A stretch of DNA of 32,000 nt from Halomicrobium mukohataei DSM 12286 (GTDB lineage Archaea; Halobacteriota; Halobacteria; Halobacteriales; Haloarculaceae), in the NCBI RefSeq assembly GCF_000023965.1, contig NC_013202.1:3030001-3062000 (forward strand). The letters are read 5' to 3'. Every line of letters begins with the position of its first letter. The stretch's first letter is position 1. The translations under genes were made by a program, and so were the position numbers. The notes beneath the pieces are model-generated. The model worked only from the letters and a program-made list of their open reading frames with translations, ran no database searches and was not told the DNA's origin. Positions 12,001 to 32,000 of the stretch are shown here, in pieces.

Positions 12001-13830
12001 ACCGACGCCGCGTTCCCACAGCCACCGACGCTGCCCGTCGGCGGTCTCGATCGGATAGGTGACCTCGAACTGTTCGTGTTCGTCGACAGCGCGCTGGACC
12101 GTCTCCCACAGCTCGTCGTTGTCGCCGACGATGATGTCTTCGGCCCAGTTGACCGCCCCGCTCCGGATCGCCGCTGGCTCGTACCCCGTCAGCTCCCGGC
12201 ACCCGTCGCTGACGAACTCGAAGGGCCAGTCGGGTTCGTTTCGACAGCGATACACCATCCCCGGGAGGTTGCTCATCAGGGTCGCGAGCTCGCGCTTGCG
12301 CTCACGCAGCTTTCGTTCGCGTGCCTGTCGCTCGGTGATGTCCTTGCTGATCCCCATGACGCCGATGATCTCGCCCGACTCGTCTCGGTACGGGTACTTG
12401 TTGTCGAGGAAGGACCGGCGCTCGCCGTCGATCTCCGCCGTCGTCGTCGTCGTCACGGTTTCGCCCGACGACAGGACGTTGCGGTCCTCCGAAATGAGCG
12501 CCTCGGTGGTCCCGCTGTCGAAGAGTTCGTCGTCTCGCTTCCCCAGAATCTCCGCCGGCTCGCGGTCGAACAGCTCCGCAGTCGCCTCGTTGACGAACTG
12601 GTAGACGCCGTCCGAGTCCTTGATGTATATCTGGTTGGTCGTGTTCTGGACGATCGCCTCCAGCTTCCGTTCGTGTTCCTTTCGCTCGGTGACGTACTGC
12701 GTGACGCCGATCAGCCCACACACCTCGCCGTCGGGTCCTCGCCAGGGCACTTTGGAGGAGACCACCCACTCCTCTGCCACGGGATTGTACTCCTCTTTCC
12801 CGATGATCGGTTCGCCCGACTCGATGACCTGCATGTCGTCGGCGTAGGTCTGTCGGGCCAGCTCCTCGTCGTAGATGTCGAGGTCGGTCTTGCCGCGGTA
12901 CCACTCCTCGTCGTCCGGGAACTCCGTCACCCGGTCGGAGACCGACTTGCGGAGGTGTCTCCCCGCCTCGTCTTTGACGTACAGGGAGACGGGCAACTCC
13001 TCGAACAGGGAATCGAGCATCGAGGCGTGTCGCTCCAGCGTCTCCATCCGTTCGCGGCGCTCGACGGTCTGGCTGATCCACCGACCCACGAGATCGACGA
13101 AGGCCTTCTCTGCGTGGCTGAACGGACGCTCTCGGGGCTCCGGGCCGACGAAACAGAGCGTCCCGTACAGTTCCCCATCGACGAGTAGCTTCGAGCCGAT
13201 GTAGCTGCGCACGTCCGAGTCCGCGTACTCGGAGTCGTCGAGGTCGCTCGCCGCGGCCGTGTCGGCGATACCGAGCACGTCGTCGGACGTGATCGTCCGA
13301 CGACAGAGCGTCTCGGAGAGGTCGAACACGCTCTCCTCGGCGACGAGCGGGCCGGTCGCCCGCTCGATCTCGTAGCGCCCGTCGGCCTGGTCGATCTGTG
13401 CGATGAAGCCGGTCTCGACCCCGAGTCGCTCACAGCCCAGTTCGAGCAGCCGGTCGAGTTTCGCGTCGTCGTCGAGCGCCGGATCGCTCGTGATCTCGTA
13501 GATCGAACGGCGAAACGCCTCGTCGGTCTGGTCCTCGGCGTCGGTCGCAGTGACGAGGTCGTCGATCGCGTCGTACAGCGCACCGATCTCGTCGTCGCGG
13601 TCGGTCGTGAACGTGACGTCGTCCGCGCCGGCTGCCACGCGACGCACCTTCTCGGTCAACTGTGCGATCGGATCGTCGGCGTCGCCCCGGACCGCCAGGC
13701 CGACCAGTCCGGTAAGCACGAACGCGATCGAGAACGTGTCAAACCCCGTCACGCCGCCGGAGACCGAGAAGAACCACTCCCCGCTGGCCGCCCCGACGAA
13801 CGGGACCACGTCGTGCCAGAGTGAGATCAT
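9061..13830 (-). CDS. Giant (1589 aa) membrane-anchored one-component regulator: TM/HAMP - GAF - about six PAS - GAF - GAF - Bat-type HTH_10 DNA-binding domain
   Basis: The N-terminus has hydrophobic segments, then HAMP-like PIAQLTEKVRRVAAGADDVTFTTDRDDEIGALYDAIDDL (about nt 13546-13683). PAS units recur and each ends in a D(I/V)(T/S)ERK..RE..L linker: YVTERKEHERKL, DITERQARERKL, DVTDRKARERELRR, DITERKCQERQLRE, DISERKRRERQLER, DITAQKQRELALE. The C-terminus is LTDRQREVLRTGYFSGFFNWPRDTTGQELAAMLDVSQPTVNRHLRLGQQRVMRRLF (HTH_10, about nt 9064-9252). No histidine-kinase domain is present. A TATA-like tcattatc (complement of 13852-13859) lies 22-29 nt upstream of the ATG. Confidence 0.9.
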   Translation of the reverse strand: MISLWHDVVPFVGAASGEWFFSVSGGVTGFDTFSIAFVLTGLVGLAVRGDADDPIAQLTEKVRRVAAGADDVTFTTDRDDEIGALYDAIDDLVTATDAEDQTDEAFRRSIYEITSDPALDDDAKLDRLLELGCERLGVETGFIAQIDQADGRYEIERATGPLVAEESVFDLSETLCRRTITSDDVLGIADTAAASDLDDSEYADSDVRSYIGSKLLVDGELYGTLCFVGPEPRERPFSHAEKAFVDLVGRWISQTVERRERMETLERHASMLDSLFEELPVSLYVKDEAGRHLRKSVSDRVTEFPDDEEWYRGKTDLDIYDEELARQTYADDMQVIESGEPIIGKEEYNPVAEEWVVSSKVPWRGPDGEVCGLIGVTQYVTERKEHERKLEAIVQNTTNQIYIKDSDGVYQFVNEATAELFDREPAEILGKRDDELFDSGTTEALISEDRNVLSSGETVTTTTTAEIDGERRSFLDNKYPYRDESGEIIGVMGISKDITERQARERKLRERKRELATLMSNLPGMVYRCRNEPDWPFEFVSDGCRELTGYEPAAIRSGAVNWAEDIIVGDNDELWETVQRAVDEHEQFEVTYPIETADGQRRWLWERGVGIYDDDGTVRALEGVVTDVTDRKARERELRRTNERLNTLIDASPDALILTDPDGVVELWNPAAERIFGWSESEVVGDTLPFVPADRESEFDAFRERLLSGESISSVETRRRRTDGTLIDVSLSAAPLRDVDGEITGIMAVMEDITERKCQERQLREHQRELDRYREFTEDILDAVDDVFYVLDEDGSLQRWNSAHTQVTGYSDAEIESMHATDFFAPEHRSEIEAAIEETKATGDAVVEVPYLTKDGEQVPHEFVAVALEDPDGNQLVAGIGRDISERKRRERQLERTTDLLSRAEEMAAIGGWAAVVEDGAAVDTTWTDKLFDIFGLADDEARSVEAMPQFYHPDDRERHRDAIERALDHGIGWEQELRLDTPDGTQRWVHTIGEPVLEDGTVVEIRGSVQDITAQKQRELALESLHDSARGLLTTESIDDATRLIVDTAASLLDQAAVGIYLYDETTNLLEPASVSPGFEALCGGEPDAVGPGTESFLWHAYVTGTQSVLEGVDTSGESGLFVDAVDTGIVVPIGSHGVFAALDEAGEIGERDRSLVETLVATAAAAFERLESEATLREREAEIEAQNERLRRQIRANETIRSVDQTLIGATDRDQLEAAVCERLVDDEDISFAWIGSFDSGGETLQARAWAGEGESYLDTPSFDRSATHSDPAVSAAVDDEPVAVSNIAQNVQQAAWRRAALAVGHQSALAVPVSLDDYQYGVLAVYADEPDVFGEFETAVFAELGTSIANAITSITTRQALNADTLTALELCVEDTTDPLLDIAFESGCTVTYEGVGTVSSDETRLFVRVSGCAPATVSELLADRHTIADHHLVSESEDGGVFEVTIRGETVLARLARQGGRVRKIAAEGSGIDIEVDVPTSVDVRSFVETLTDDGTVELVSRRERARSPESDPALAESILGALTDRQREVLRTGYFSGFFNWPRDTTGQELAAMLDVSQPTVNRHLRLGQQRVMRRLFDDEPEAE

Positions 13831-14386: not shown

Positions 14387-14542
14387 ATGTCGACGAACGA
14401 ATCGACACAGGCCGACGACGAGCAGATCCGCGAAACCTACGAGGAGTACGTCATCCGAGGCGAGAGCGTCGCGATGATCGCGGATCCCGAGCGCACCCAC
14501 GCCTGGATCCAGTCGGACGTGACCGTCGAAATCGAGCAGTGA
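14387..14542 (+). CDS. 51-aa acidic microprotein (not in the ORF track, which omits ORFs this short)
   Basis: MSTNESTQADDEQIRETYEEYVIRGESVAMIADPERTHAWIQSDVTVEIEQ. Its ATG starts 2 nt after the HalOD1 stop, and its TGA overlaps a GTG (14539) in the frame of the next gene. The composition is typical of halophile proteins. Confidence 0.5.
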   Translation: MSTNESTQADDEQIRETYEEYVIRGESVAMIADPERTHAWIQSDVTVEIEQ

Positions 14543-14589
14543 ACCCACCGCCGTGTCGTCCCGGCCAGTCCAGCTCGACAGATCCACCA

Positions 14590-15357
14590 ATGGACACGAC
14601 CACCGAGACGCTAGTTCGGCCCACGAGCGCGCGACCGGCGACAGCCCTCTGTGTCGACGACGACCGCGAGTACCTGTCGGCGATCGAACGAGCCTTCGAG
14701 GATCGCGACGAGCTCCAGATTCGCGTCGAGACCGACCCATCGGCCGTGCCCGACCGGCTCGACGGCGTCGAGTGTCTGGTCAGCACCGTCCGACCCGACG
14801 GCCCTGACGGGCGCTCGCTGCTGAGAGCGGTCCGGGAAGTCGCCCCGAACGTCCCGTTCTTGTTTCACTCGGCCGTCCCCTTCGAAGAGATCGATCGGGA
14901 CGCCCTGTGGGACGGTCCGACGGACTACCTCGAAAAGGGCTCGGGCGACTCCCACATGGCACTCCTGGCGTATCGCATCGGCCGACTCGTCGGGCAACAC
15001 CGCCTGACTGCGAGCGCGCGGCGCTGTCACGAGGCCCTCGAAGCGAGCCGCGAGGCCACGCTGATGGTCACGCCAGACGGTGCGGTGACCTTCGCCAACA
15101 ACCGACTCGCGACGGAACTGTCCGCGTCGCCGGCCGAGCTGCGCGGCCGAGAGTGGACCGAGCTGCTATCGGAGGCGTCCATCCAGCGACTCCGGACAGA
15201 GGCGTTCCCCGTCGCCGCCGACGGGTGGAGCTGGACCGGACAGACGACGCTCGCTACCGACACCGACGAGCCGAGCAGTTCGCGGACGACGCTGTCGACG
15301 CTCGACGACGGGAGCGCGATCCTGGTGTTTCACGAACTGGATCGGACCGACGAGTAG
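14590..15357 (+). CDS. Receiver-like (pseudo-REC) plus PAS domain protein with no output domain
   Basis: The REC-like N-terminus has LCVDDDREYL (acidic pocket), FLFHSA (Thr/Ser position) and DYLEKG (Lys position). A PAS-like segment follows (LEASREATLMVTPDGAVTFANNRLATELSASPAELRGREW). The ATG at 14590 is preferred. GTG 14539, which overlaps the upstream stop as GTGA, is an alternative start. Confidence 0.75.
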   Translation: MDTTTETLVRPTSARPATALCVDDDREYLSAIERAFEDRDELQIRVETDPSAVPDRLDGVECLVSTVRPDGPDGRSLLRAVREVAPNVPFLFHSAVPFEEIDRDALWDGPTDYLEKGSGDSHMALLAYRIGRLVGQHRLTASARRCHEALEASREATLMVTPDGAVTFANNRLATELSASPAELRGREWTELLSEASIQRLRTEAFPVAADGWSWTGQTTLATDTDEPSSSRTTLSTLDDGSAILVFHELDRTDE

Positions 15358-15432: not shown

Positions 15433-17043
15433 TCAGTCGTGTCGGAACGACCGCTGGCCGGTAAGGACCATCGCCACGTCGTGTTCGTTCGCGGCCTCGA
15501 TGACCATGTCGTCGTTCTTCGAGCCGCCCGGCTGGATGACCGCCTCGATGCCCGCCTCGGCGGCGGCTTCGAGGCCGTCCGGGAACGGGAAGAAGGCGTC
15601 GCTCGCCATGACCGCGCCGTCGGCGTCCTTGCCCTGGGCGTGCTCGTCGGCCTTCATCGCGGCGAGGCGGACGGCGTCGACCCGAGAGACCTGGCCCATC
15701 CCGATGCCGACCGTCTCCGTGCCCTTGGCAAAGAGGATGCCGTTCGATTTCACGTGCTTGAGCGTGTGCCAGGCGAACAGCATCGACTCGATCTGCTCGT
15801 CGGTGGGCTCGCGGTCGGTGACGACTTCGAGGTCGTCGGCCGTGAGGTGCTGGGTGTCCCGCTCCTGGACGAGGCGGCCGCCGACGAGTGGTTTCTCCGT
15901 GATCGGCTCGGTCACGTCGTAGTTTTCCGGCCGGCCGGACTCGCCCGTCCGGCCGTCTCCAACGTCCAGCACGCGCAGGTTCTCCTTCTGGAAGAGCACG
16001 TCGAGCGCGTCGTCGGTGTAGCCCGGCGCGACGACGATCTCCTTGAAGGAGTCGACGATCTGCTCGGCCGTGGCAACGTCGCACTCGCGGTTCAGCGCGA
16101 CGATGCCGCCGAAGGCGCTCTGGGGGTCCGTCGAGAGGGCCCGCTCGTAGGCCTCGGCGACGGAGTCGGCGGTCGCACAGCCGGCGGGATTGGTGTGCTT
16201 GATGACGGCGGCGGCCGGCTCGTCGAACTCCTTGATCAGATTCAGGGCTCCGTCGGCGTCGTTGTAGTTGTTGTAGCTGAGTGCCTTCGCGCCCTCGTTG
16301 AGCTGGTCGGCGTGGACGACGCTGGCCTCTTCGGTCGTCCGGTCGGCGTACACCGCGGCGTCCTGATGCGGGTTCTCCCCGTAGCGCAGGTCGGCGGTGC
16401 GGTCGTTGCTGACGAGCCGGCGCGCGGGGAACGGACCGCCGTCGTCGCCCTCGACGGTGACGCTGTGGGCGTCCCAGTCGACGGTGACGCGGTCCTCTGC
16501 GAACCACTCGATCGCGCGCGGATACGCAGTGAACTCGCCCTCGTAGAGGACGCGCTCTTTGAGGTCGGCCACGTCGTCGCCGTCGTACACCGGGATCGGT
16601 TCCTGCGTGACGATCGGGCCGTCGTCGACCTCCTCGTCGACGACGTGGACGGTACAGCCGGTGGTCTTGACTCCGGCGTCGAGCACCTGCTCGTGGGCGT
16701 CCATGCCCGGGAAGGCGGGCAGCAGCGACGGGTGGACGTTCAGCGTCGTGGGCACCTCGTCGAGGAACGTCTCCGTGAGGACTCGCATGTAGCCGTCCAG
16801 ACAGACCAGATCGAAGTCGTACTCCTCGATGGCGTCCAGCACGCGCAGTTCGTGGGCTTCCCGCTCCTGGTCGTCGGGGCGCTCGACGACCTCGGTGGGA
16901 ATGTCGCGCTCGGCGGCGGCCTCTATGACGGGCGCGTCGGCGTCGTTCGTGAGCACGACCGCGAGCTCCGCTCCACCGGGCGCGCGGTCGGCGACGTTCA
17001 TCAGGTTGCGGCCACGGTTGCTGGCCAGACCGGCGATTTTCAT
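15433..17043 (-). CDS. purNH: Fusion of phosphoribosylglycinamide formyltransferase (PurN) and the AICAR formyltransferase domain of PurH
   Basis: The N-terminus MKIAGLASNRGRNL...NVHPSLLPAFPG...TGCTVH is PurN-like. The C-terminus GENPHQ, LSYNNYNDADGA, VIKHTNPAG, FGGIVALN, GGRLVQ, SDAFFPF, VIQPGGS is the AICARFT part of PurH. No MGS-like IMP cyclohydrolase domain is present. The start is set at ATG 17043 (MKIAG), with aattacttt (complement of 17069-17077) 26-34 nt upstream. Confidence 0.9.
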   Translation of the reverse strand: MKIAGLASNRGRNLMNVADRAPGGAELAVVLTNDADAPVIEAAAERDIPTEVVERPDDQEREAHELRVLDAIEEYDFDLVCLDGYMRVLTETFLDEVPTTLNVHPSLLPAFPGMDAHEQVLDAGVKTTGCTVHVVDEEVDDGPIVTQEPIPVYDGDDVADLKERVLYEGEFTAYPRAIEWFAEDRVTVDWDAHSVTVEGDDGGPFPARRLVSNDRTADLRYGENPHQDAAVYADRTTEEASVVHADQLNEGAKALSYNNYNDADGALNLIKEFDEPAAAVIKHTNPAGCATADSVAEAYERALSTDPQSAFGGIVALNRECDVATAEQIVDSFKEIVVAPGYTDDALDVLFQKENLRVLDVGDGRTGESGRPENYDVTEPITEKPLVGGRLVQERDTQHLTADDLEVVTDREPTDEQIESMLFAWHTLKHVKSNGILFAKGTETVGIGMGQVSRVDAVRLAAMKADEHAQGKDADGAVMASDAFFPFPDGLEAAAEAGIEAVIQPGGSKNDDMVIEAANEHDVAMVLTGQRSFRHD

Positions 17044-17154
17044 GGTCGAGAGGGCGCGGCGGGCGCGCAAAGTAATTGCGGTGTCGGAATGACACAATCG
17101 ACACGGTTCGGCTCGACAGTAACGCTTTCAGGGACCGCCGCCGAGCGACGTGAT

Positions 17155-25209: not shown

Positions 25210-26313
25210 TCAACGGCTCGTCGAGAGCAGCCGTTCGACAGTCGCCTCGACGGCCGCCGCGGCCTCGTGGATCTCGCTGCGGCGGACGTACTCGCGCTCG
25301 CTGTGGGCGACCGCGCCCTCCTCGTCGGCCAGCACGCCCGGACCGAAGACGACCGTCGGTGCGTCGGGCGCGAAGTGGGCGGCCTCCGTCGCGGCACCGA
25401 ACGGGCGGATCGCACCGCCGCTCTCCGCGGCGAGCGTCTGGACGAGCGTCGCTTCCCGGTCGGTCTCGAACGCCTCGGGGAACGGCGTGTCGGGCCGGAC
25501 GAGCGACACGTCGAGGGACATGCCGTCCGGGAGCCACTGCCCGAGGTGTGCTTCGAGCCGTTCGGGGAACTCGTCGCTGGTCTCCGGGGGGACGCTGCGG
25601 CGGTCGAAGGTGATCGTACACTCGGCGGGCACCTGGTTGGGGGCCTCGCCGCCCTCGATCATCGAGGGGGTGAGCGTGGGGCGGCCCAGCGTCTCGTGTT
25701 CGCCCGGACCGTGGTGCTCGCTGTAGCTCTCCATGGCCTGCATGATCGGCGCGGCGGCCCGGATGGCGTTCGCGCCGTCGGCGGGATCGGAGGCGTGGGC
25801 GCTCTCGCCGTGGATGGTGACCCGCCCCTCGAACTGGCCGCGGGCCGCGGTACACACGTCCAGGTCGGTCGGCTCGCCGACGACGTACCCGTCGGCCGAC
25901 AGCGTCTCTTCGAGGTGGCCCGCACCGGTCTGGTGGGTCTCTTCGTCTGGCGTGATCGCCAGCGTCAGCCGCCCAGCACCCACATCCGCCCGGAGGAAGG
26001 CGGCGAGCAGCGCGGCCAGTGGCCCCTTCGCGTCGCAGCTCCCACGGCCCCGGACCACGTCGTCCTCGCCCTCGCGAAACGGAACGTGAGGCGGGACGGT
26101 GTCGATATGCGTGTTCAGGACGAGGTGAGGGCCCTCCTCGGCCGCCTCGCGGCTGGCCAGCACGTTTCCGGCCTCGTCGACGGTGGCCTCGTGGCCGCCG
26201 TCGGCGAGCGCGTCGACCAGCAGATCGCGCATCTCGTCGACAGCGTCGTGGGAGGGCGTCTCGACGGCCTCCCGGTGGAAAGCGTCGATATCGAACGTCG
26301 CGGCGTCGGCCAT
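25210..26313 (-). CDS. dapE: M20-family metallohydrolase (ArgE/DapE family), probable succinyl-diaminopimelate desuccinylase
   Basis: Motifs LVLNTHIDTVP, GRGSCDAKG and ITPDEET, plus the dap gene context. The ATG at 26313 overlaps the lysA stop (TAATG). DapE versus ArgE cannot be decided from sequence alone. Confidence 0.75.
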   Translation of the reverse strand: MADAATFDIDAFHREAVETPSHDAVDEMRDLLVDALADGGHEATVDEAGNVLASREAAEEGPHLVLNTHIDTVPPHVPFREGEDDVVRGRGSCDAKGPLAALLAAFLRADVGAGRLTLAITPDEETHQTGAGHLEETLSADGYVVGEPTDLDVCTAARGQFEGRVTIHGESAHASDPADGANAIRAAAPIMQAMESYSEHHGPGEHETLGRPTLTPSMIEGGEAPNQVPAECTITFDRRSVPPETSDEFPERLEAHLGQWLPDGMSLDVSLVRPDTPFPEAFETDREATLVQTLAAESGGAIRPFGAATEAAHFAPDAPTVVFGPGVLADEEGAVAHSEREYVRRSEIHEAAAAVEATVERLLSTSR

Positions 26314-27554
26314 TACTCTCCGGCCTCGTCTTCGACGCGAACCACGTCGGCCATCGTCTCGCGGCGGCGGACCACCCGCTCGTCGCCGTCCTCGATGGCG
26401 ACTTCGGCCGGTCGGGGCTGGGAGTGGAACTGGTTGGCCAGTTCGTAGCCGTAGGCCCCGGCGTTGCCGATCGCCAGCAGATCGGTCCGCTCGGGGCGGG
26501 CGATCGGACGATCCGTCGCGAACACGTCGGCGCTCGTACAGCACGGGCCGCCGATCGAGACGGGGTGTGGATCTCGGTCGGGGGCAGAGACGTTTCGAAT
26601 CGGGTGATAGGAGTCGAACATCGCCGGGCGGATCAGCGTCGCCAGCGAGGCGTCGACGCCGACGACGGTCGTCGCTGGCGTCTCCTTGACCGTGTTGACT
26701 GTCGTGAGGATCAGCTCGGCGTCGGCCACGACGTAGCGGCCCGGCTCCAGTTTGATCCGGGCCGAGAGGTCACCGACCGCCTCGCGGACCCGCTCGCCGA
26801 CGGCCTGCATGTCCAGCGGCTCGGTCTCCTCGCGGTAGGGCACGCCGAAGCCGCCACCGAAGTCGACGAACTCCAGATCGGAGTCCCCGACTTCGCGGGC
26901 CAGCTCCGCGACCTTCGCGATGGCCCGGCAGTGGTCGTCGAGGTCCTCGCGCAGGACGCCGCTGCCCGCGTGGGCGTGCAGCCCCACGAGGTCGAACCGG
27001 TCGCGGAGATCGTCTGCGAGCGCGGGCACTTCGTCGTAGGGGATGCCGAACTTCGCGTCCTTACCGGTCGCGACCTTCTCGTGGTGGCCCGTCCCGATGC
27101 CGGGGTTGATGCGAATCGCGACGCGACCGTCGTAGCCGCGGTCTTCGAGGCGGTCGAACGTGTCCTCGGCTCCGCCGGTGATCGTCAGGCCGGGGTGCTC
27201 GTCGGCGAGATCGACCGCGTAGTCGAGGTCGCCCCCAGGAGGGTTGACCGCGGTGTACTGCAGCGTGTTGGGGTCCGCGCCGGCGTCGATCGCTCGCTGG
27301 AGTTCGCCGGCAGCGGCACACTCGATGTCCGCGCCCGCTTCGAGGAGTCCCGAGAGGACGGCACGGCCAGTGTGTGCCTTCGCGGCGTACATCACGTGCG
27401 CGTCGGGGAAGGCCGCGGCGAAGCGCCGGTAGTTCGCCGCGACGCGGTCCACGTCCAGCACGTACAGCGGCGTCCCGTGTTCCTCGGCCAGCCGGGCGAG
27501 ACGGTCGTGGTCCCAGTCCGCCAGTCGACGGACCGGAGGCGAGTCGCTACTCAT
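26313..27554 (-). CDS. lysA: Diaminopimelate decarboxylase
   Basis: PLP fold-III decarboxylase: TPLYVLD, YAAKA (PLP Lys), HAHAGSG, FGGGFG, EPGRY, GGPCCTSADV. The start is set at ATG 27554 (MSSDSPPV); the track's 33-codon extension is Arg-rich. Confidence 0.9.
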   Translation of the reverse strand: MSSDSPPVRRLADWDHDRLARLAEEHGTPLYVLDVDRVAANYRRFAAAFPDAHVMYAAKAHTGRAVLSGLLEAGADIECAAAGELQRAIDAGADPNTLQYTAVNPPGGDLDYAVDLADEHPGLTITGGAEDTFDRLEDRGYDGRVAIRINPGIGTGHHEKVATGKDAKFGIPYDEVPALADDLRDRFDLVGLHAHAGSGVLREDLDDHCRAIAKVAELAREVGDSDLEFVDFGGGFGVPYREETEPLDMQAVGERVREAVGDLSARIKLEPGRYVVADAELILTTVNTVKETPATTVVGVDASLATLIRPAMFDSYHPIRNVSAPDRDPHPVSIGGPCCTSADVFATDRPIARPERTDLLAIGNAGAYGYELANQFHSQPRPAEVAIEDGDERVVRRRETMADVVRVEDEAGE

Positions 27555-27697
27555 TGGGGAGTACACGGCGCGGGCGAGTAAGAAGGGTTCCGTTTCGGGC
27601 CGCCGGTAGTCGGTCCGTGTGGCCGCTCGTCTCCGGTCCGGGAATCCAGACACAGGGACCGACCGCGGCTCGACGATGCGAGGGAGACGAGGCGGGG

Positions 27698-28558
27698 TTA
27701 CCCGCTCTCACCCTCAGCCGGCGACTCAGTCCCGTTGTCGGACGCCTCCGTTTCAGTGCCCTCGTCCGGTGTGTCGGTTTCCGTGCCCGGCTCTTCTTCC
27801 GGTGTGTCGGTTTCCGTGCCCGGCTCTTCTTCCGGCGTCTCCTCCATCTCGCCCGCCATGAACGGCTGGATCGCCGACAGCACGTCCGGGATGGGGAGCG
27901 CCGGATCGTAGGCGTCCGGGAACGGCGACTCGCCGACGAGTGCGTTGAGCACCGCGGCGTGGCGCGCCTCGACGCTGTGGATCGACAGCGCGGCCGAGAG
28001 GATGTCTGGGCTCTCGATGCGCGGTGCGACACCGGCGTAGGCGGCGACGCCGGTGTTTTCGAGCACCTGTGCGGTCGCGATGAAGGCGTCGGCCGAGTCG
28101 ATCCCGAACTCGAAGGCGGGCGGGTCGGCCGGCGTCCCGCCGAGCGTCTCGATCACGCGGGCCAGCTGCTCGGTGTGTGACTGCTCCTGAGCGCTGATAT
28201 CCGCGAAGAACGTGGCCAACAGATCCGGCGGCACTTCGAGCGCGCTCGCGCTCGCCAGCGCCTCGCCGTCGAACTGTTCGAGCCCCGTGTTGTAGAACTC
28301 GTCTTCGAGGTATTCGAGCGTCAGCGCGTAGTTGAGCACGTCCACGTCCGTGTCGGGCTGGTCGAACTGGGACGGAACCTCCATGGGCTGGTTGCCAGCC
28401 GCGTCGTCCTCCTGGGCCGTCGCGGCCGTCCCGACCAGTCCCGCACCGATCACCGCACCCGTGCCCGCGAGTACGTCGCGCCGCGAGCGCATCGTCTGGC
28501 GGATGTCTTCCATCGTCGGCAATGCTGTGCTGTCGTCAGTTCGGTGTCTGTCTGTCAT
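27698..28558 (-). CDS. Tat-secreted ferritin-like domain protein with an acidic Thr/Glu/Pro repeat tail
   Basis: Twin-arginine signal MRSRRDVLAGTGAVIGAGLVGTAATAQ. Ferritin-like region LNYALTLEYLEDEFY...AQEQSHTEQL...LENTGVAAY...SVEARHAAVLN. C-terminal tail EEEPGTETDTPEEEPGTETDTPDEGTETEASDNGTESPAEGESG. Alternative starts are at 28513 and 28492. Confidence 0.75.
   Translation of the reverse strand: MTDRHRTDDSTALPTMEDIRQTMRSRRDVLAGTGAVIGAGLVGTAATAQEDDAAGNQPMEVPSQFDQPDTDVDVLNYALTLEYLEDEFYNTGLEQFDGEALASASALEVPPDLLATFFADISAQEQSHTEQLARVIETLGGTPADPPAFEFGIDSADAFIATAQVLENTGVAAYAGVAPRIESPDILSAALSIHSVEARHAAVLNALVGESPFPDAYDPALPIPDVLSAIQPFMAGEMEETPEEEPGTETDTPEEEPGTETDTPDEGTETEASDNGTESPAEGESG
27766..27831. 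repeat. Perfect tandem duplication, 2 x 33 bp (ccggtgtgtcggtttccgtgcccggctcttctt), inside the ferritin-like gene tail
   Basis: The units 27766-27798 and 27799-27831 are identical, with degenerate partial copies on both sides. They encode EEEPGTETDTP twice. Confidence 0.95.
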
Positions 28559-28820
28559 GTGTGTATCCTGCCAGTGCCGTGGCGTCTCTCGCTTGCGGAG
28601 ACGGACGGTTTGTTATGCGCAGAGATTTCCAGCCGGCGCTCGATACGGCCGCGTTACCCGGTCGCGAGGCGTTCGAGCGGGAACGACCGCGTTGACACTC
28701 CGGGTGACGACAGAGAGCGACGAACGGCGGCGTCTGTGGCCGGCGTCGGCGACGGCCGCCGCGAGTAAGGCGAGACAGTGTTCGGGTGCGGTCAGCTTAC
28801 CGCCGTGCGGGCGGCCGGTC

Positions 28821-29651
28821 TCACTCCCGTAGCGCGTCCTCTCGTTCCGTCGCCTCCAGCGTCTCCGCTTCCACGTCGGTCGCGACGACGGCGGGCTTGT
28901 ACGCGCCGCCGTCGAACAGGTCGTGGTCGCTCACGCTGGACTCGACGAAGCGAGTGAACGCGCGCCGTTCGGGCGGCAACTCGCCGTAGATGACTTCCTC
29001 TTCGACGAGGTCGTAGATCGGAATGCGGGGCGTCAGCAGCGTGTTCTCCCCGACGATGCTGTTCTCCCCGACGACGAAGCCGCTGGTGACCCGACAGCCC
29101 GCGCCCAGCGAGACGCCGTCCTCGACGACGACCGGCGTGCTCTCGACCGGTTCGAGGACGCCGCCGATCAGCGTGTTCGCGCCGAGCTTGACGTCGTCGC
29201 CGATCTGGGCGGCCGATCCCACCGTGTCACAGGAGTCGACGAGCGTGCCGTCGCCGACGTGTGCGCCGATGTTGACGAACGCGGGCGACATGAGGATGGC
29301 GTCGCTGCCGACGTACGCACCGCGCCGGATGACCGTTCCGTCGGGCGTGTTGCGGCTCCCCCGTTCGTGCAGGTCGTCGGTCTCGCGCAGCGGAAGCACG
29401 TCGTGGTAGGTAACGTCGCCGTACTCGCGAGCGACGGTCTCGCGCAGGCCGAAGTTCAGGAGGATCCCCTGCTTGACCCAGGCGTTGGCCTCCCACTCCC
29501 CGCCGCGTTTCTCGGCGGCCCTGATCTCGCCGGCTTCGAGCGCGGCGAGAAAGTCGTCGAGGACGGCCAGGTGGTCGTCGGTCGCGTCGGCGGCCGTCAG
29601 TCCGTCCTGTTTGCGTTCCCAGAGGTCGCGTACGTCTGCTTCGAGACTCAT
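28821..29651 (-). CDS. dapD: 2,3,4,5-tetrahydropyridine-2,6-dicarboxylate N-succinyltransferase (hexapeptide-repeat transferase)
   Basis: MSLEADVRDLWERK... with left-handed beta-helix hexapeptide repeats (VGDGTLVDSCDTVGSAAQIGDDVKLGANTLIGGVLEP...VEDGVSLGAGCRVTSGFVVGENSIVGENTLL). ATG 29651 has a TATA-like cgtatatcc (complement of 29674-29682) 23-31 nt upstream. Confidence 0.85.
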   Translation of the reverse strand: MSLEADVRDLWERKQDGLTAADATDDHLAVLDDFLAALEAGEIRAAEKRGGEWEANAWVKQGILLNFGLRETVAREYGDVTYHDVLPLRETDDLHERGSRNTPDGTVIRRGAYVGSDAILMSPAFVNIGAHVGDGTLVDSCDTVGSAAQIGDDVKLGANTLIGGVLEPVESTPVVVEDGVSLGAGCRVTSGFVVGENSIVGENTLLTPRIPIYDLVEEEVIYGELPPERRAFTRFVESSVSDHDLFDGGAYKPAVVATDVEAETLEATEREDALRE

Positions 29652-29938
29652 TGGGGCGAGATTGCCCCTCCTCGGATATACGTCTCTGGGTTTCCGACCG
29701 AACGGACGCCGGAGCGAACCGCCACGGCTCGACGGTCCGGTAAGTGACGGTTTCCGACGGAGAGCCGTGGGAACGGGCACATACGGTCGAACTAACAATG
29801 CGTGCGTCGACCCACCGTCGGCCCACGACCGATGAGAGCCGACAGCGATCCAGCGAGCGAGACGAGTGCCAGGAAGTGTCACGAGGACAGAACGACCGTC
29901 GCGACGACGCGCGAGCGGGGCCGATAGGTGACAGAGAG

Positions 29939-31228
29939 ATGAATCGCGTGACAGTCGACGAGGTCACGGCGACCGACACGACGCTGCGAGCGACGGTGAC
30001 GACCAGTGGCCGCGTCGGGCGCTTCGTCACCGACGACCCCTTCCTCGCCGACTACGGCGTCGACATCGCCGCCGTGCCGGAGTCGCTGCTCGTGGTTCCG
30101 GTGCTCGCACACGTCTGTCCCGTCGCCTGGGCGACGGGGGCGACGGTCGCAGTCGATCGCGTCGACGCTGCGTTCCTCGACTCGCTCCGACACGTCGGCC
30201 AGCGCCTCTGTGAGATGTATCCGGCGTTCATGCAGGGGGGCTCCGTCGTCTGTCAGCGGGCTGTCGAGGGCGACCGTGATCCCGGCGACCGCGACGGGAG
30301 TGCGCTGCTGTTTACCGGCGGCGTTGACTCGACGGCGACGTACGTCCGCCACGAGTCCGAACAGCCCGACCTGATCAGCGTCAGAGGATGGGTGATGCGA
30401 GAACGGGACCGCTGGCAGCGCAACCGCGAGTTCTTCGCCGACTTCGCGGCCGAGCGGGGCCTCGACGCGCACTTCGTCGAGTCGAACATGCTGTCGTTTC
30501 TCGCGACGCCGCTGTTGCAGGCCCACTTCCAGCGGTACCTCGACGGCGCGTGGTACAGCTCCGTCGGCCACGGACTGGGGTTGCTCGGCCTGTGTGCGCC
30601 ACTGACGGCGGTCGCGGACATCGGCCGGCTGTACATCGCAGCGACCCACACCGAGGAGTGGACTCGTCCGTGGGGCTCGCACCCGACGATCGACGACCGC
30701 GTCCGGTGGAGCGGGACCCAGGCTGTCCACGACGGCTACGAGTCGACGCGCCAGGAGAAGATCGAGACCATCGCCGACTACGTGCGCGGCCGGTCCCGAG
30801 AGATCACGCTCCGGACGTGCGTCCACGCCGAGGGTCCGCAGAACTGCAACGACTGCGAGAAGTGCTACCGGACGATCGTCGGTCTCCTGCTGGCCGGCCT
30901 CGATCCGAACGACCACGGATACGACTACGACGCCGCGACGGTCCCGGCGATCAGAGACACCTTCGAGTCCGGCGGGAAACACCTCTCGGCACAGAAGCGC
31001 TACCACTGGGAGACGTTACAGGACGCCGCCCGCGAGGTCGAGGCGATCGAGGCACCCGGTGGCCGGGAACTGCTCGGGTGGCTCCGAGAAGCCGACTTCG
31101 GGCCAGCAGTCGAGCAGTCGGCTCGACCGCTCGGACAGCGCCTCCTGCAGGCGACGGCTCGTCAGATCCCGACGAGCGTCTACGCGACGCTGTACCCGGT
31201 CTATCGACGGCTGTCCGCCGATCGGTGA
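29939..31228 (+). CDS. Uncharacterised PP-loop ATPase (adenine nucleotide alpha-hydrolase superfamily), QueC-like Zn-Cys motif, 429 aa
   Basis: PP-loop LLFTGGVDST (nt 30305-30334). Cys cluster C-x8-C-x2-C-x2-C, TCVHAEGPQNCNDCEKCYRT (Cys codons at 30818, 30845, 30854, 30863). ATG 29939 (MNRVTVDE) is preferred; the track's 65-codon N-terminal extension is basic and atypical. Confidence 0.75.
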   Translation: MNRVTVDEVTATDTTLRATVTTSGRVGRFVTDDPFLADYGVDIAAVPESLLVVPVLAHVCPVAWATGATVAVDRVDAAFLDSLRHVGQRLCEMYPAFMQGGSVVCQRAVEGDRDPGDRDGSALLFTGGVDSTATYVRHESEQPDLISVRGWVMRERDRWQRNREFFADFAAERGLDAHFVESNMLSFLATPLLQAHFQRYLDGAWYSSVGHGLGLLGLCAPLTAVADIGRLYIAATHTEEWTRPWGSHPTIDDRVRWSGTQAVHDGYESTRQEKIETIADYVRGRSREITLRTCVHAEGPQNCNDCEKCYRTIVGLLLAGLDPNDHGYDYDAATVPAIRDTFESGGKHLSAQKRYHWETLQDAAREVEAIEAPGGRELLGWLREADFGPAVEQSARPLGQRLLQATARQIPTSVYATLYPVYRRLSADR

Positions 31229-31289
31229 GCCCGAGTCGAGACGACGGCGTCGGCGACCCGCTCGGCCTCGCGGCGCGGGACCGACGGCG

Positions 31290-32000
31290 TCAGGCGTCGT
31301 CGACGACCGCACCGAAGTCGTACCAGCCGGGGTCGCGGCCGACGAGCCACTGGGCCGCGTCGAGCGCGCCCGCGGCGAAGACGCCGCGGTCCTCGGCGCG
31401 ATGGGACAGCGAGAGCACCTCGTCGTTGCCCGCCAGCACCAGTTCGTGCTCGCCGCGGATGTCGCCGGCACGGCGGGCGAAGACGCCGATCTCGTCGTCG
31501 GCCCGGGGCGCGTGGCCCTCGCGCCCGTACACCGGCTCCACGTCGCGCTGCTCCTGGACGGTCTCGAGGATCGTGTTGGCCGTGCCGGAGGGGGCGTCGA
31601 CCTTGCCGTTGTGGTGGCTCTCCATGAGTTCGAGGTCGTAGTCCTCCAGCGCGCCGACGGCCGCCCGAACCGTCCGCAAGAGCGCCTGGATGCCCCGCGA
31701 GAAGTTCGTCGCCTTCAGGACCGGGATCTCCTCGGCGGCCTCGCGTAGTCGCTCGGACTGGGCCTCGTCGAAGCCGGTCGTCGCGACCGCGAGCGCGACG
31801 CCGTTGTCGAGACAGCCCGCGAGCACGTCCATCGTCGCTTCGGGCGTCGAGAAGTCGACGACGGCGTCCACGTCGTACTCTTCGAGGACTGTGCCGGCCT
31901 CGCTGGCGGGACGCAGTGGCAGGTCGTCCGTCTCGTCGGCCGTGCTGGCGAAGCCGGCGACGACCTCCACGTCGTCACGTGCTCGTCCGGCCTCGACGAC
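31290..32000 (-). CDS. dapB: 4-hydroxy-tetrahydrodipicolinate reductase, C-terminal ~236 codons (the N-terminus lies beyond the window end)
   Basis: DapB signature LMESHHNGKVDAPSGTA, plus ATNFSRGIQ. The frame remains open from 31970 to the window edge, so the true start is outside the window. Confidence 0.85.
   Translation of the reverse strand, partial: VVEAGRARDDVEVVAGFASTADETDDLPLRPASEAGTVLEEYDVDAVVDFSTPEATMDVLAGCLDNGVALAVATTGFDEAQSERLREAAEEIPVLKATNFSRGIQALLRTVRAAVGALEDYDLELMESHHNGKVDAPSGTANTILETVQEQRDVEPVYGREGHAPRADDEIGVFARRAGDIRGEHELVLAGNDEVLSLSHRAEDRGVFAAGALDAAQWLVGRDPGWYDFGAVVDDA

Follow-up and report, generated by a model that had tools for sequence, protein, structure and literature searches.

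A published map of the QueC scaffold takes the Pfam family PF06508 as its starting point and covers canonical QueC, QatC, Cap9, LarE and the WbpG-type enzymes; the zinc motif of QueC is C(x)8CxxCxxC (PMC13329287). Archaeal N-glycans contain 2,3-diamino-uronic acids that are amidated at C-6, Thr-amidated at C-6 or modified with an acetamidino group at N-3 (PMC11407970). In the Wbp/Vim pathway WbpB, WbpE and WbpD are accompanied by a CE4 deacetylase, a FemAB-type transferase and a uronamide-forming amidotransferase (PMC7468200).

A first-pass annotation of the window, which is the whole 32,000-nucleotide stretch of Halomicrobium mukohataei DSM 12286 DNA analysed here, drew attention to a stand-alone QueC-like gene located between two dap genes. 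In the following, family X is used as a label for the family of QueC-fold PP-loop proteins to which the encoded protein belongs. The family X protein is neither canonical QueC nor QatC nor Cap9. The family most likely takes part in making or decorating polysaccharides or glycans of the cell surface, and not in 7-deazaguanine metabolism.

The Gene and Its Neighborhood

The family X gene is a complete open reading frame of 429 codons plus stop at 29939..31228 on the forward strand, and is supported by GC3, dN/dS and a public gene call. GC3 is 0.87 in this frame versus 0.64-0.69 in the overlapping frames. A Shine-Dalgarno-like motif, AGGTGA (29926..29931, +), is found 7 nt 5' of the ATG at 29939. 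An alignment of 33 haloarchaeal homologues shows that this start position is common to all of them, and the identical protein is called in CP045142.1 and in 10 other contigs. An upstream GTG start at 29744 would give a protein of 494 amino acids, but was rejected since the homologue starts, the Shine-Dalgarno-like motif and the public gene call all favor 29939. The dN/dS ratio of the gene is 0.37 against a relative of 92% identity and 0.29 against one of 74% identity, while dapD is more tightly constrained (0.06-0.09). All residues conserved in the family are intact in the window protein. The gene is real and under purifying selection; a dN/dS around 0.3 shows moderate constraint only.

The gene is flanked by dapD (28821-29651, -) and by dapB, which starts at 31290 on the reverse strand and continues past the end of the window. 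It is thus situated on the opposite strand between the two dap genes, as first described, being divergent from dapD and convergent with dapB. The arrangement is seen only in relatives of 74-92% identity, and the importance first attached to the dap context does not survive this comparison of neighborhoods. The position is most likely a lineage-specific accident that is uninformative with regard to function; in this genome and those of close relatives the gene would have moved to a site between dapD and dapB, with no indicated link to lysine synthesis. The window contains no genes for TGT, QueD/E, TatD or a QatA-type ATPase, in agreement with the first-pass annotation, and neither queD nor queE is found in the 21-kb locus. 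Two genes on the same strand, one for a VimE-like deacetylase (E 5e-20) and one of the FemAB family, are located 2.2 kb from the family X gene. No such homologues are found beside family X in any other locus examined, and the link is weak, resting on one lineage.

Architecture of the Protein

The window protein consists of an N-terminal domain, a QueC-like core and a C-terminal region. With 429 amino acids it is about twice the length of QueC (median ~222), as had been remarked, and the two extensions (residues 1-~112 and ~321-429) are both real and conserved. The full-length AF2 model has a pLDDT of 88 and a pTM of 0.87. The N-terminal alpha/beta domain, comprising residues 1-112 (29939..30274, +), is family-specific as judged from the model and from conservation. 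Its elements are predicted to follow the order beta-beta-alpha-beta-alpha-beta-alpha-beta, and Y39, P54, P61, W64, and D76 are conserved. The pLDDT of this domain is 94-98 within the full-length model and 95 when it is modelled alone. A Foldseek search of the N-domain model against the PDB gave nothing significant, the best E-value being 0.08 with RNase H-like folds.

Foldseek assigns residues ~118-320 (30290..30898, +) to a predicted Rossmann-type ATP-pyrophosphatase core similar to that of QueC. The core contains the PP-loop LLFTGGVDST (residues 123-132; 30305..30334, +), a pyrophosphate-binding motif of the SGGxDS type that the first-pass annotation had recognized. G127, G128, D130, and S131 of this loop are invariant in the 33 haloarchaeal homologues and at least 90% conserved among 140 sequences of 24-48% identity, and the form S/TGGxD(S/A/G) is kept in 98 family X members from genomes. 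In the AF2 model TGGVDS (residues 126-131) comes after the strand 120-124 and before the helix 129-137. The placement of the loop, its conservation throughout the family, and the fact that the Foldseek matches are all PP-loop enzymes identify the protein as a member of the PP-loop ATP pyrophosphatase superfamily. The Cys cluster C294-x8-C303-x2-C306-x2-C309 is part of the signature NCxxCEKCxRT (30818..30865, +). It has the QueC-type spacing originally reported, its four cysteines are 100% conserved in the 140 sequences, and it is predicted to be a structural Zn site, as in QueC.

The C-terminal region (residues 321-429; 30899..31225, +) contains seven predicted helices in the AF2 model. P323, G327, W357, and W381 are conserved. 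The pLDDT varies between 54 and 94, with low confidence over the last 40 residues, and for distant family X members the profile match leaves this region uncovered. The best Foldseek matches of the AF2 model are QatC, TtuA, QueC, LarE, and Cap9. For the core the values are E 1.5e-6 for QatC, TM (target) 0.60-0.63 for the QueC structures 2pg3 and 3bl5, and 0.59 for Cap9; among viral structures, phage QueC proteins come out on top. The suggested structure check thus yielded a QueC-type core, which the model places nearest QatC, QueC, and Cap9.

A Large Family without a Database Model

The profile searches proposed in the first-pass annotation gave no assignment. The window protein has no match in Pfam, NCBIfam, or PADLOC at E<=10 and none among the PDB sequences, and the family X profile gives only chance-level matches to PDB sequences. 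PF06508 and TIGR00364 are among the models that do not match the window protein at E<=10. PF06508 does match 17 of 44 relatives, in all cases below the gathering score and at model positions ~156-203, which is the Cys region. The NCBIfam model for QatC (NF041925) weakly matches seven of the 44 (best E 6e-4), but not the window protein. The same is true of Pfam DUF6395 (PF19932), with weak matches in 24 of 44 members (best E 2e-3) to the Cys motif and the following helices, all below the gathering score. In the NCBIfam listings at E<=1 for the window protein and 44 relatives, no WbuX/WbpG model occurs. Asn_synthase does not match the window protein, while one of the 44 relatives reaches E 0.025, and no glutaminase domain is present in the AF2 model of the window protein. 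Some of the homologues are named "7-cyano-7-deazaguanine synthase" in UniRef. A literature search found no characterized member of family X, and nothing relevant linking a QueC-like or PP-loop protein to polysaccharides or to pyruvyl transferase.

Family X is very large and is covered by no database model. Clustered at 50% identity it comprises 5,512 clusters at E<=1e-3, 3,097 at E<=1e-10, and 979 at E<=1e-30. Nearly all of the best 150 clusters are ~400-450 amino acids long and aligned over most of the profile. The members are spread over many bacterial phyla as well as Bathyarchaeia and Halobacteria. Bacterial and archaeal loci were collected by means of a degenerate DNA pattern for NCxxCEKCxRT, and 119 of 120 such loci contained family X members. 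The bacterial loci encode several family X paralogues each. In haloarchaea the distribution is patchy and the genes are often plasmid-borne, many homologues being found on megaplasmids. Fusions of the types Acyl_transf_3-X and X-ATPgrasp_ST also occur. The published map of the QueC scaffold starts at PF06508, and family X falls below this model; the map therefore lacks a branch that comprises several thousand sequence clusters and is marked by a distinct N-domain.

Family X Genes in Polysaccharide and Glycan Clusters

In one haloarchaeal operon, with overlapping or abutting frames, the family X gene is found together with genes encoding a Hexapep acetyltransferase, a DegT aminotransferase, a Gfo/Idh/MocA oxidoreductase, an ATP-grasp enzyme, a GNAT-like protein, a GT4 glycosyltransferase, a CE4 deacetylase, an epimerase, a GT2 glycosyltransferase, and GlmS, the family X gene being situated between the oxidoreductase and the ATP-grasp genes. 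The best NCBIfam match of the oxidoreductase is UDP-GlcNAc 3-dehydrogenase (E 2e-68), and the genes that share this operon with family X include a WbpB/E/D-like set for 2,3-diacetamido sugars. In other haloarchaeal loci, including megaplasmids, family X is accompanied by genes for an orthologous ATP-grasp protein, glycosyltransferases, a CE4 deacetylase, and a flippase. A metagenomic locus found via a distant member (P0150) displays the order pyruvyl transferase, X, MurJ-type flippase, GT4, GT4, Gfo/Idh/MocA, DegT, Bac_transf, and a close subfamily from Bacteroidota and Firmicutes has the order Wzx, X, pyruvyl transferase. On a Priestia exopolysaccharide plasmid, two tblastn matches to family X are found along with genes for a UDP-glucose dehydrogenase and a pyruvyl transferase.

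The neighbors were counted in 8-kb blocks with crude ORF calls, at loci picked by the DNA pattern for the Cys motif; the figures are raw counts without a formal background. The commonest immediate neighbors on the same strand (n=92) were PS_pyruv_trans (8), Polysacc_synt (8), GT4 (6), ATP-grasp (4+4), PGA_cap (3), and GT25 (3). A pyruvyl-transferase homologue was found in 21 of the 102 8-kb family X loci, again as a raw count for loci picked by the Cys-motif pattern. An iterative search for the haloarchaeal type of ATP-grasp found none in the bacterial loci, where the ATP-grasp neighbors are of the RimK or ATPgrasp_ST types.

Homologous loci examined at 55% identity or below are mostly glycan clusters, and dap linkage is absent in all of them except Halosimplex, where dapB-dapD are found 8.5 kb from a family X gene that is outside a glycan cluster. 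Location in a polysaccharide or glycan cluster thus holds at the family level but fails for the window copy, which is outside any such cluster. The orphan status first given to the gene is not supported at the family level, the family being very large and recurring in these clusters. As family X is found in gene clusters for cell-surface sugar polymers, its substrate is most likely a sugar rather than a nucleobase.

Proposed Activity and Alternative Explanations

With QueC, QatC, Cap9, and further PP-loop enzymes as analogues, we infer both reaction and substrate: family X would be an adenylating enzyme acting on a sugar, either on a carboxyl group to form an amide or on an acetamido group to form an amidine. 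That it is an ATP-dependent enzyme exchanging oxygen for nitrogen on a glycan substituent seems on balance probable, while the more specific version, in which a carboxylate on the sugar becomes an amide, is put forward tentatively. The PP-loop would bind ATP, and an oxygen of a sugar substituent would then be adenylated. The likeliest target would be a carboxylate, such as C-6 of a 2,3-diacetamido-2,3-dideoxy-uronic acid or the carboxyl group of a pyruvate ketal. Displacement of AMP by ammonia or an amine would give an amide, either a uronamide or an amino-acid amide. Since no glutaminase domain or partner was seen, the nitrogen would come from an amine or, as in QueC, from free ammonia. The ATP-grasp neighbors could themselves be carboxylate-amine ligases.

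The same chemistry directed at another atom gives a variant in which family X is an N-acetyl-sugar amidotransferase that forms acetamidino groups, a functional analogue of WbpG, WbuX, PseA, and AglX. The carbonyl oxygen of the 3-acetamido group in a 2,3-diacetamido uronic acid would then be adenylated and replaced by ammonia to give an amidine. Amide-type carbonyls are commonly activated by PP-loop enzymes; GMP synthase, TilS, and QueC in its second step are examples. The WbpB/E/D pathway of P. aeruginosa O5 includes the installation of acetamidino groups, and family X is co-operonic with WbpB/E/D-like genes. The same pathway leads to acetamidino groups in M. maripaludis (PMC11407970), and the QueC superfamily of PP-loop proteins includes the WbpG-type enzymes (PMC13329287). 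Any carboxylate ligation could be covered by the adjacent ATP-grasp enzyme. However, the NCBIfam families listed at E<=1 for 44 members include no WbuX/WbpG model, the WbpG-type Cys motif is different and in reverse order, and no HisH/HisF-type partner for ammonia delivery is found in any locus examined. The strong link to pyruvyl transferase and the UDP-glucose dehydrogenase also fit a carboxylate target better. Formation of acetamidino groups is considered unlikely from this evidence taken together, although both it and carboxylate amidation are compatible with the data on family X, which cannot separate them.

Canonical queC, a Qat/CBASS defense function, an Fe-S sulfurtransferase, and a role in the dap pathway were rejected for the following reasons. 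A QatC/Cap9-like enzyme would join a carboxylated nucleobase (CDG) to the N-terminus of a protein in anti-phage defense. Structurally, QatC comes closest (E 1.5e-6, with an alignment spanning ~430 columns) and has a similar three-part layout and length (PMC13279940), NF041925 weakly recognizes some members, and many homologues are found on megaplasmids. Against this, PADLOC is silent even at E<=10, no qatA, qatB, qatD, CD-NTase, or Cap10 gene is found near any locus examined, and the neighbors are consistently glycan genes. The whole-length TM is only 0.41, which is about the level of the core alone, and QatC is absent among the 50 best listed PDB matches of the N-domain, none of which is significant. 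A defense enzyme of this kind is therefore very improbable, and the anti-phage affinity that had been suggested receives no support from Qat, CBASS, Dpd, or que partners. A sulfurtransferase of the TtuA/LarE type, which would hold an Fe-S cluster at its Cys cluster and thiolate the adenylated substrate, is brought to mind by TtuA (E 6e-4) and LarE among the Foldseek matches. The TM for TtuA is low (0.26), family X has four cysteines at the exact QueC Zn spacing, and no gene for a sulfur carrier, a cysteine desulfurase, or a TtuB-like protein is found nearby, which together make this equally hard to believe. TtuA uses three cysteines. Non-sacrificial LarE likewise binds [4Fe-4S] via three conserved cysteines and lacks the QueC Zn motif (PMC13329287). 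That the gene is the ordinary queC of the genome, serving archaeosine synthesis with lineage-typical extensions, would agree with the motifs SGGxDS and C-x8-C-x2-C-x2-C and with the UniRef name of some homologues. It is nevertheless extremely improbable given the absence of a PF06508/TIGR00364 match and the sub-threshold matches of relatives to the Cys region only, the loss of the essential QueC motifs YxQxHxxE, VPxRN, and YPDC, the absence of queD/queE linkage in the window and the 21-kb locus, and the distribution, with several paralogues per bacterial locus and patchy, often plasmid-borne genes in haloarchaea. Scarcely more credible is an accessory enzyme of the diaminopimelate/lysine pathway. 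The gene is found between dapD and dapB here and in the relatives of 92 and 74% identity, and Halosimplex dapB-dapD is not far away, but the gene is on the opposite strand, and the cluster is also broken up by an unrelated Ferritin_2 gene and, in one relative, by SCO1/Redoxin genes. Loci at or below 55% identity are without dap linkage, Halosimplex excepted, and we know of no step in the succinylase pathway that needs a PP-loop enzyme.

The proposal in the first-pass annotation of a new ATP-dependent amidation or nucleobase modification may thus be retained for amidation, which is still the best guess, while the nucleobase part is not supported, the CDG motifs being absent. No HMM or structure match to WbpG/WbuX or AsnB/WbpS places the protein in a characterized family of sugar amidotransferases; the genomic context nevertheless points to sugar modification. 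Returning to the preferred exchange of oxygen for nitrogen on a glycan, it is conceivable, though rather doubtful, that family X is an unrecognized, widespread class of glycan-decorating enzymes with QueC/QatC-type chemistry, responsible for a modification not yet assigned to a gene. Such a modification may be a uronamide formed from ammonia, independently of an AsnB-type enzyme, in the glycans of archaea and bacteria, the amidation of pyruvate-ketal carboxyl groups, or the attachment of amino acids or peptides to the carboxyl groups of sugars together with the recurrent ATP-grasp partner. For glycobiology, family X is a candidate for amide or amidine decorations without known enzymes, for instance the C-6 amidated 2,3-diamino-uronic acids of archaeal N-glycans. 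As QatC is its nearest solved relative, the Qat defense enzyme may even have been recruited from family X as a metabolic source. The case further shows that deazaguanine chemistry should not be concluded from a pair of QueC-like motifs, and that a position in a dap cluster can be silent on function.

Comparison with Known Systems

QatC (PDB 9y01/9y02; ~427 amino acids) is the closest structural match (Foldseek probability 1.0) and likewise has a QueC core, with SGGxDS and a Zn site of four cysteines, between an extension at the N-terminus and a helical one at the C-terminus; the CDG-binding motifs of QueC are lost in both. They differ in that the QatC HMMs (PADLOC; NCBIfam NF041925) do not match the window protein, and in that the Zn motif of QatC is C-x19-CGxCxxRR while family X has the canonical QueC spacing. 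The order of strands in the N-extension is also different, QatC having a four-stranded parallel sheet whereas the N-domain of family X opens with a beta-hairpin. The operon of qatA (ATPase), qatB, and qatD (TatD nuclease) is absent at all family X loci examined. The TM of 0.41 mentioned above refers to the full-length alignment with 9y02_B. Homology of the extensions to those of QatC is not claimed, because the search with the N-domain alone gave no significant PDB match and QatC was not among the 50 best listed.

QueC (PF06508 cluster 1; 3bl5, 2pg3) shares the PP-loop, the identical C-x8-C-x2-C-x2-C spacing, and the core fold with family X, and likely also a mechanism of adenylation followed by attack of nitrogen. 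Family X is twice as long and falls below all HMM thresholds, and the window copy has no queD/queE in its 21-kb locus. The motifs YxQxHxxE, VPxRN, and YPDC, essential in E. coli QueC, are replaced by the segments ISVRGWVMR, AWYSSVGHG, and PWGSHPTIDD, which were matched by the order of motifs along the sequence and not by superposition. Cap9 (type IV CBASS, PDB 9nto) has a QueC-like core (TM target 0.59), but is a minimal protein of ~185 amino acids that keeps the QueC catalytic motifs; its gene is next to those for a CD-NTase and the TGT-like Cap10, neither of which is found near the gene for the 429-residue family X protein. DUF6395 (PF19932), which family X members weakly resemble over the Cys motif, is a Pfam family with no known function.

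The closest functional analogy to family X would be WbpG, WbuX, and PseA (PF06508 cluster 5, subcluster 2). They too are PP-loop members of the QueC superfamily, and their genes are found in O-antigen or glycan clusters, some of which include WbpB/E/D. Their Cys motif, CxxC-x6-CxC, is N-terminal and precedes the PP-loop region, with Cys motif and substrate triad reversed, whereas the Cys motif of family X is C-terminal, and the HisH/HisF-type partners are missing around family X. WbpS and WbqG, the AsnB-type enzymes that form uronamides in the Wbp/Vim pathway, belong to an unrelated family with an Asn_synthase and a glutaminase domain, neither of which is present in family X. Family X nevertheless takes an analogous slot in its gene clusters, that of an ATP-dependent amidating enzyme next to a Wbp-type 2,3-diacetamido sugar pathway, a CE4 deacetylase, and an acyl or aminoacyl transferase.

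The Gene and Its dap Neighborhood

The open reading frame of X (29939-31228, + strand) is intact and comprises 429 codons followed by a stop. When composition was calculated per frame, its GC3 was 0.87 compared to 0.64-0.69 in the overlapping frames, which is the pattern expected for a true gene at 68% genome GC. A protein identical to X is annotated in CP045142.1 (GCA_009217585.1) as well as in ten further public contigs. Reading of the sequence places AGGTGA 7 nt 5' of the ATG, and all homologues share one aligned start position; a longer, GTG-initiated reading from 29744 was therefore rejected. The dN/dS of X is 0.37 against a relative of 92% identity and 0.29 against one of 74%, while the neighbors dapD and lysA display values of 0.06-0.09 and about 0.1. 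X is under purifying selection, but of a looser kind than that acting on dapD or lysA.

To the left of X lies the divergent dapD (28821-29651, -) and to the right the convergent dapB (31290 onward, -), so that X is situated between them on the opposite strand, as the first-pass annotation stated. X adjoins dapD in the 92%- and 74%-identity relatives, and in the latter also dapB, while homologues of 55% identity or less are located elsewhere. The dap location is lineage-specific. Insertions in this cluster are tolerated: a ferritin-like gene also breaks it up, and one relative has SCO1/Redoxin genes between lysA and the ferritin-like gene. The mosaic on the - strand (25210-32000) contains dapA-dapB, X (inserted on the + strand), dapD, a Ferritin_2 gene, lysA, and a dapE-like M20 gene; the last two abut at 26313. 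No dapF is visible in the cluster in the window (25210-32000) or in the related loci L004 and L132. The Ferritin_2-domain protein (27698-28558, -), encoded between dapD and lysA, carries a twin-arginine signal (SRRDVL) and an acidic C-terminal tandem repeat (TPEEEPGTETD twice), and its gene position is conserved in L004 and L132.

In addition to LysA, the M20 peptidase, the ferritin-like protein, DapD, and DapB, the window encodes an XPB-type helicase, a PrsW protease, PurB, an MFS transporter, a hydrolase, a phosphoribosyltransferase, and several regulators. Among the latter are a response-regulator/PAS gene (14539-15357, +) and a giant Bat-type protein of 1,589 aa (9061-13830, -) with HAMP, GAF, multiple PAS, GAF, BAT, and HTH_10 domains. 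Two fusion enzymes are found: one joins FolC-like Mur ligase domains to a pterin-binding (FolP) domain (3296-5800, -), the other a PurN-like Formyl_trans_N domain to a PurH-like AICARFT domain (15433-17097, -). A GH18 chitinase (5898-7589, -) with two CBM5/12 modules and a PKD domain suggests a chitin-degrading haloarchaeon.

Motifs and Predicted Fold

According to a 2026 survey of the QueC family, the hallmarks of QueC are SGGxDS and C(x)8CxxCxxC, and its median length is about 222 aa (PMC13329287). The first-pass annotation had pointed to a PP-loop, a Zn-type Cys cluster, and a QueC-like structure in X, and all three hold, the last at the level of fold. LLFTGGVDST occupies residues 123-132, and C294-x8-C303-x2-C306-x2-C309 is intact; neither varies among 33 haloarchaeal homologues. 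Among 140 family sequences of 24-48% identity the four cysteines are conserved in 100%, and G127, G128, and D130 in 93-99%. All family members examined retain an S/TGGxD(S/A/G) loop. The haloarchaeal members keep S/TGGVDS, while the close subfamily from Bacteroidota and Bacillota has SGGxDA, with Ala for the final Ser (loci L014, L017, L026, L027, L030, L045, L060, L066, L070, L088, and L109).

A confident AlphaFold2 model built on a 33-sequence alignment (pLDDT 88, pTM 0.87) predicts three parts: residues 1 to about 112 form an N-terminal α/β domain, about 118-320 a Rossmann-type core that holds the PP-loop and the Cys cluster, and about 321-429 a helical C-terminal region, the last 40 residues of which are of low confidence. 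The top Foldseek match in PDB is QatC (9y02_B; E 1.5e-6, about 430 aligned columns, TM 0.41), followed by TtuA, QueC, LarE, and Cap9. Normalized to the target, TM is 0.60-0.63 for QueC and 0.59 for Cap9. The best named matches among viral models are phage QueC proteins. The core is of the ATP-binding QueC type at the level of fold.

At a cutoff of E<=10 the window protein matches no model in Pfam, NCBIfam, or PADLOC; searching PDB sequences with it matched nothing, and the family profile gave no genuine match there. YxQxHxxE, VPxRN, and YPDC, defined as essential in QueC by mutagenesis (PMC13329287), were not found in its sequence, and judged by sequence order ISVRGWVMR, AWYSSVGHG, and PWGSHPTIDD take their place. 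When 44 diverse family members were scanned one by one against HMM models, sub-threshold matches were obtained to PF06508 in 17 (best E 5e-6) and to DUF6395 in 24 (best E 2e-3), and weak NCBIfam matches to QatC and to QueC in seven each. Where inspected, the Pfam matches are confined to the Cys-motif region. By any model, X is none of QueC, QatC, Cap9, or the known sugar amidotransferases.

Distribution of the Family

A profile search covering 1.84 billion representatives returned 5,512 clusters (50% identity) at E<=1e-3, of which 3,097 reach E<=1e-10 and 979 reach E<=1e-30; nearly all of the best 150 are 400-450 aa long and match most of the profile. A degenerate DNA pattern for NCxxCEKCxRT located at least 120 genome loci, and a family member is encoded in 119 of 120. 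The bacterial hosts include Nitrospirota, Verrucomicrobiota, Planctomycetota, Acidobacteriota, Bacteroidota, Bacillota, Actinomycetota, Pseudomonadota, Chloroflexota, and candidate phyla; the archaeal hosts are Bathyarchaeia and Halobacteria. The family is two-tiered, with full-length matches in a close tier (haloarchaea, Bacteroidota, Bacillota) and matches limited to the core and the Cys motif in a distant one. The description of X as an orphan applies to the copy in the H. mukohataei genome but not to the family. The public annotations examined read 'hypothetical protein', and this large family with its distinct N-terminal domain is not covered by any database model.

Tandem arrays of two to four diverged paralogues are common in bacterial polysaccharide loci (L089 with four copies, L040 with at least two, L098, L055, L079, L105, L106, L034, L022, and L068). 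These could represent hetero-oligomers or several sequential modifications.

Genomic Context

The leaning of the first-pass annotation toward nucleobase or defense chemistry found no support; no TGT, QueD/E, TatD, or QatA-like gene is found in the window, and the neighbors of the family are glycan genes. Two related haloarchaeal genomes have X in a compact operon, in fourth place after a Hexapep acetyltransferase, a DegT aminotransferase, and a Gfo/Idh/MocA oxidoreductase. For the oxidoreductase, NCBIfam gives archaeal UDP-GlcNAc 3-dehydrogenase as the top match, though below cutoff (E 2e-68). The trio ahead of X follows the WbpD/E/B logic for 2,3-diacetamido-2,3-dideoxy sugars. Genes for an ATP-grasp protein, a GNAT-like protein, GT4, a CE4 deacetylase, an epimerase, GT2, and GlmS lie 3' of X. 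Halobacterium zhouii, Halosimplex, and Halorientalis also have an orthologue of the ATP-grasp gene (55-65% identity), adjoining X or close to it. Recurrence was seen in four lineages for the CE4 deacetylase and in three for the GNAT-like gene. X is also encoded on thirteen haloarchaeal megaplasmids. The haloarchaeal copies are frequently found on megaplasmids of 130-400 kb, inside glycan clusters (L134, a Halorientalis plasmid, L008, L009, and ten further plasmid records), while the window copy is chromosomal.

In crude counts of 92 same-strand immediate neighbors in bacteria, the most frequent Pfam families were PS_pyruv_trans (8), Polysacc_synt/Wzx (8, plus 4 Polysacc_synt_3), GT4 (6), ATP-grasp RimK (4), ATPgrasp_ST (4), PGA_cap (3), and GT25 (3). 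The gene order in the close subfamily is Wzx, X, pyruvyl transferase, and a homologue of the latter is present in 21 of 102 8-kb X loci. Complete EPS loci with X are found on a 243-kb metagenomic contig, with WbpB/E/D-like genes and Bac_transf, and on a Priestia plasmid, with UDP-glucose dehydrogenase and pyruvyl transferase. Natural fusions of X also occur: in one (784 aa) it follows an Acyl_transf_3 O-acyltransferase, in another (813 aa) it precedes an ATP-grasp domain of the 'sugar-transfer associated' type. The same fusion set (proteins P0184, P0253, and P0208; L011 2364-4805) has an 884-aa protein with a PS_pyruv_trans-like C-terminal half, a weak match below threshold (E 0.002). The genomic context of the family points to glycan and polysaccharide biosynthesis.

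Proposed Reaction

The closest structural relatives, QueC, QatC, Cap9, and LarE, adenylate a carboxylate, after which a nucleophile displaces AMP. We therefore propose, tentatively and by analogy, that X might adenylate a carboxylate on a sugar and that ammonia or an amine would then be joined to it as an amide. The target would be C-6 of a 2,3-diacetamido-uronic acid or a carboxyl added by a pyruvyl transferase. No glutaminase partner of X was seen. The conserved W64, W205, R271, K274, K308, R311, W357, and W381 would, speculatively, suit a pocket for a sugar nucleotide or a lipid-linked sugar. Archaeal N-glycans contain 2,3-diamino-uronic acids that are amidated or Thr-amidated at C-6, and also acetamidino forms (PMC11407970). 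The former would agree with the proposed amidation, while the latter would fit the main rival, conversion of acetamido to acetamidino groups as proposed for WbpG-type enzymes, which we consider less likely.

Comparison with Known Systems

About 1.4-3.4 kb beyond the right end of the window, past dapA, lie two genes that are read in the direction of X (L001 13461-15433, +). The first encodes 304 aa with UDP-2,3-diacetamido-2,3-dideoxy-glucuronate deacetylase VimE as best NCBIfam match (E 5e-20, far below cutoff), the second a 334-aa FemAB-family (Acetyltransf_6) protein, and a GH3 glycosidase gene is next. The Wbp/Vim pathway of Porphyromonas, which unites WbpA/B/E/D, VimE, VimA (FemAB-like), and WbpS (an amidotransferase), leads to 2-N-seryl-3-N-acetyl-glucuronamide (PMC7468200), and by this suggestive parallel X may fill the WbpS slot. 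The parallel is weighted lightly, since no homologues of the pair were found beside X in the other loci compared.

QatC is about 427 aa long with N- and C-terminal extensions flanking a QueC core (PMC13279940, PMC13639016), a layout like that of X. The QatC N-extension consists of three helices and a parallel sheet of four strands (PMC13279940, PMC13639016), while the N-domain of X opens with a β-hairpin. Modeled separately (pLDDT 95), this domain had no significant match in PDB (best RNase H-like folds, E 0.08), and QatC was not among the 50 matches listed. Homology to QatC is therefore claimed for the core only, and the overall QatC-like layout may be convergent. The conservation of Y39, P54, P61, W64, and D76 across the close family argues that the N-domain is functional. 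In the proposed amidation reading, X would be a PP-loop amidating enzyme of glycan synthesis, a kind of enzyme already known.
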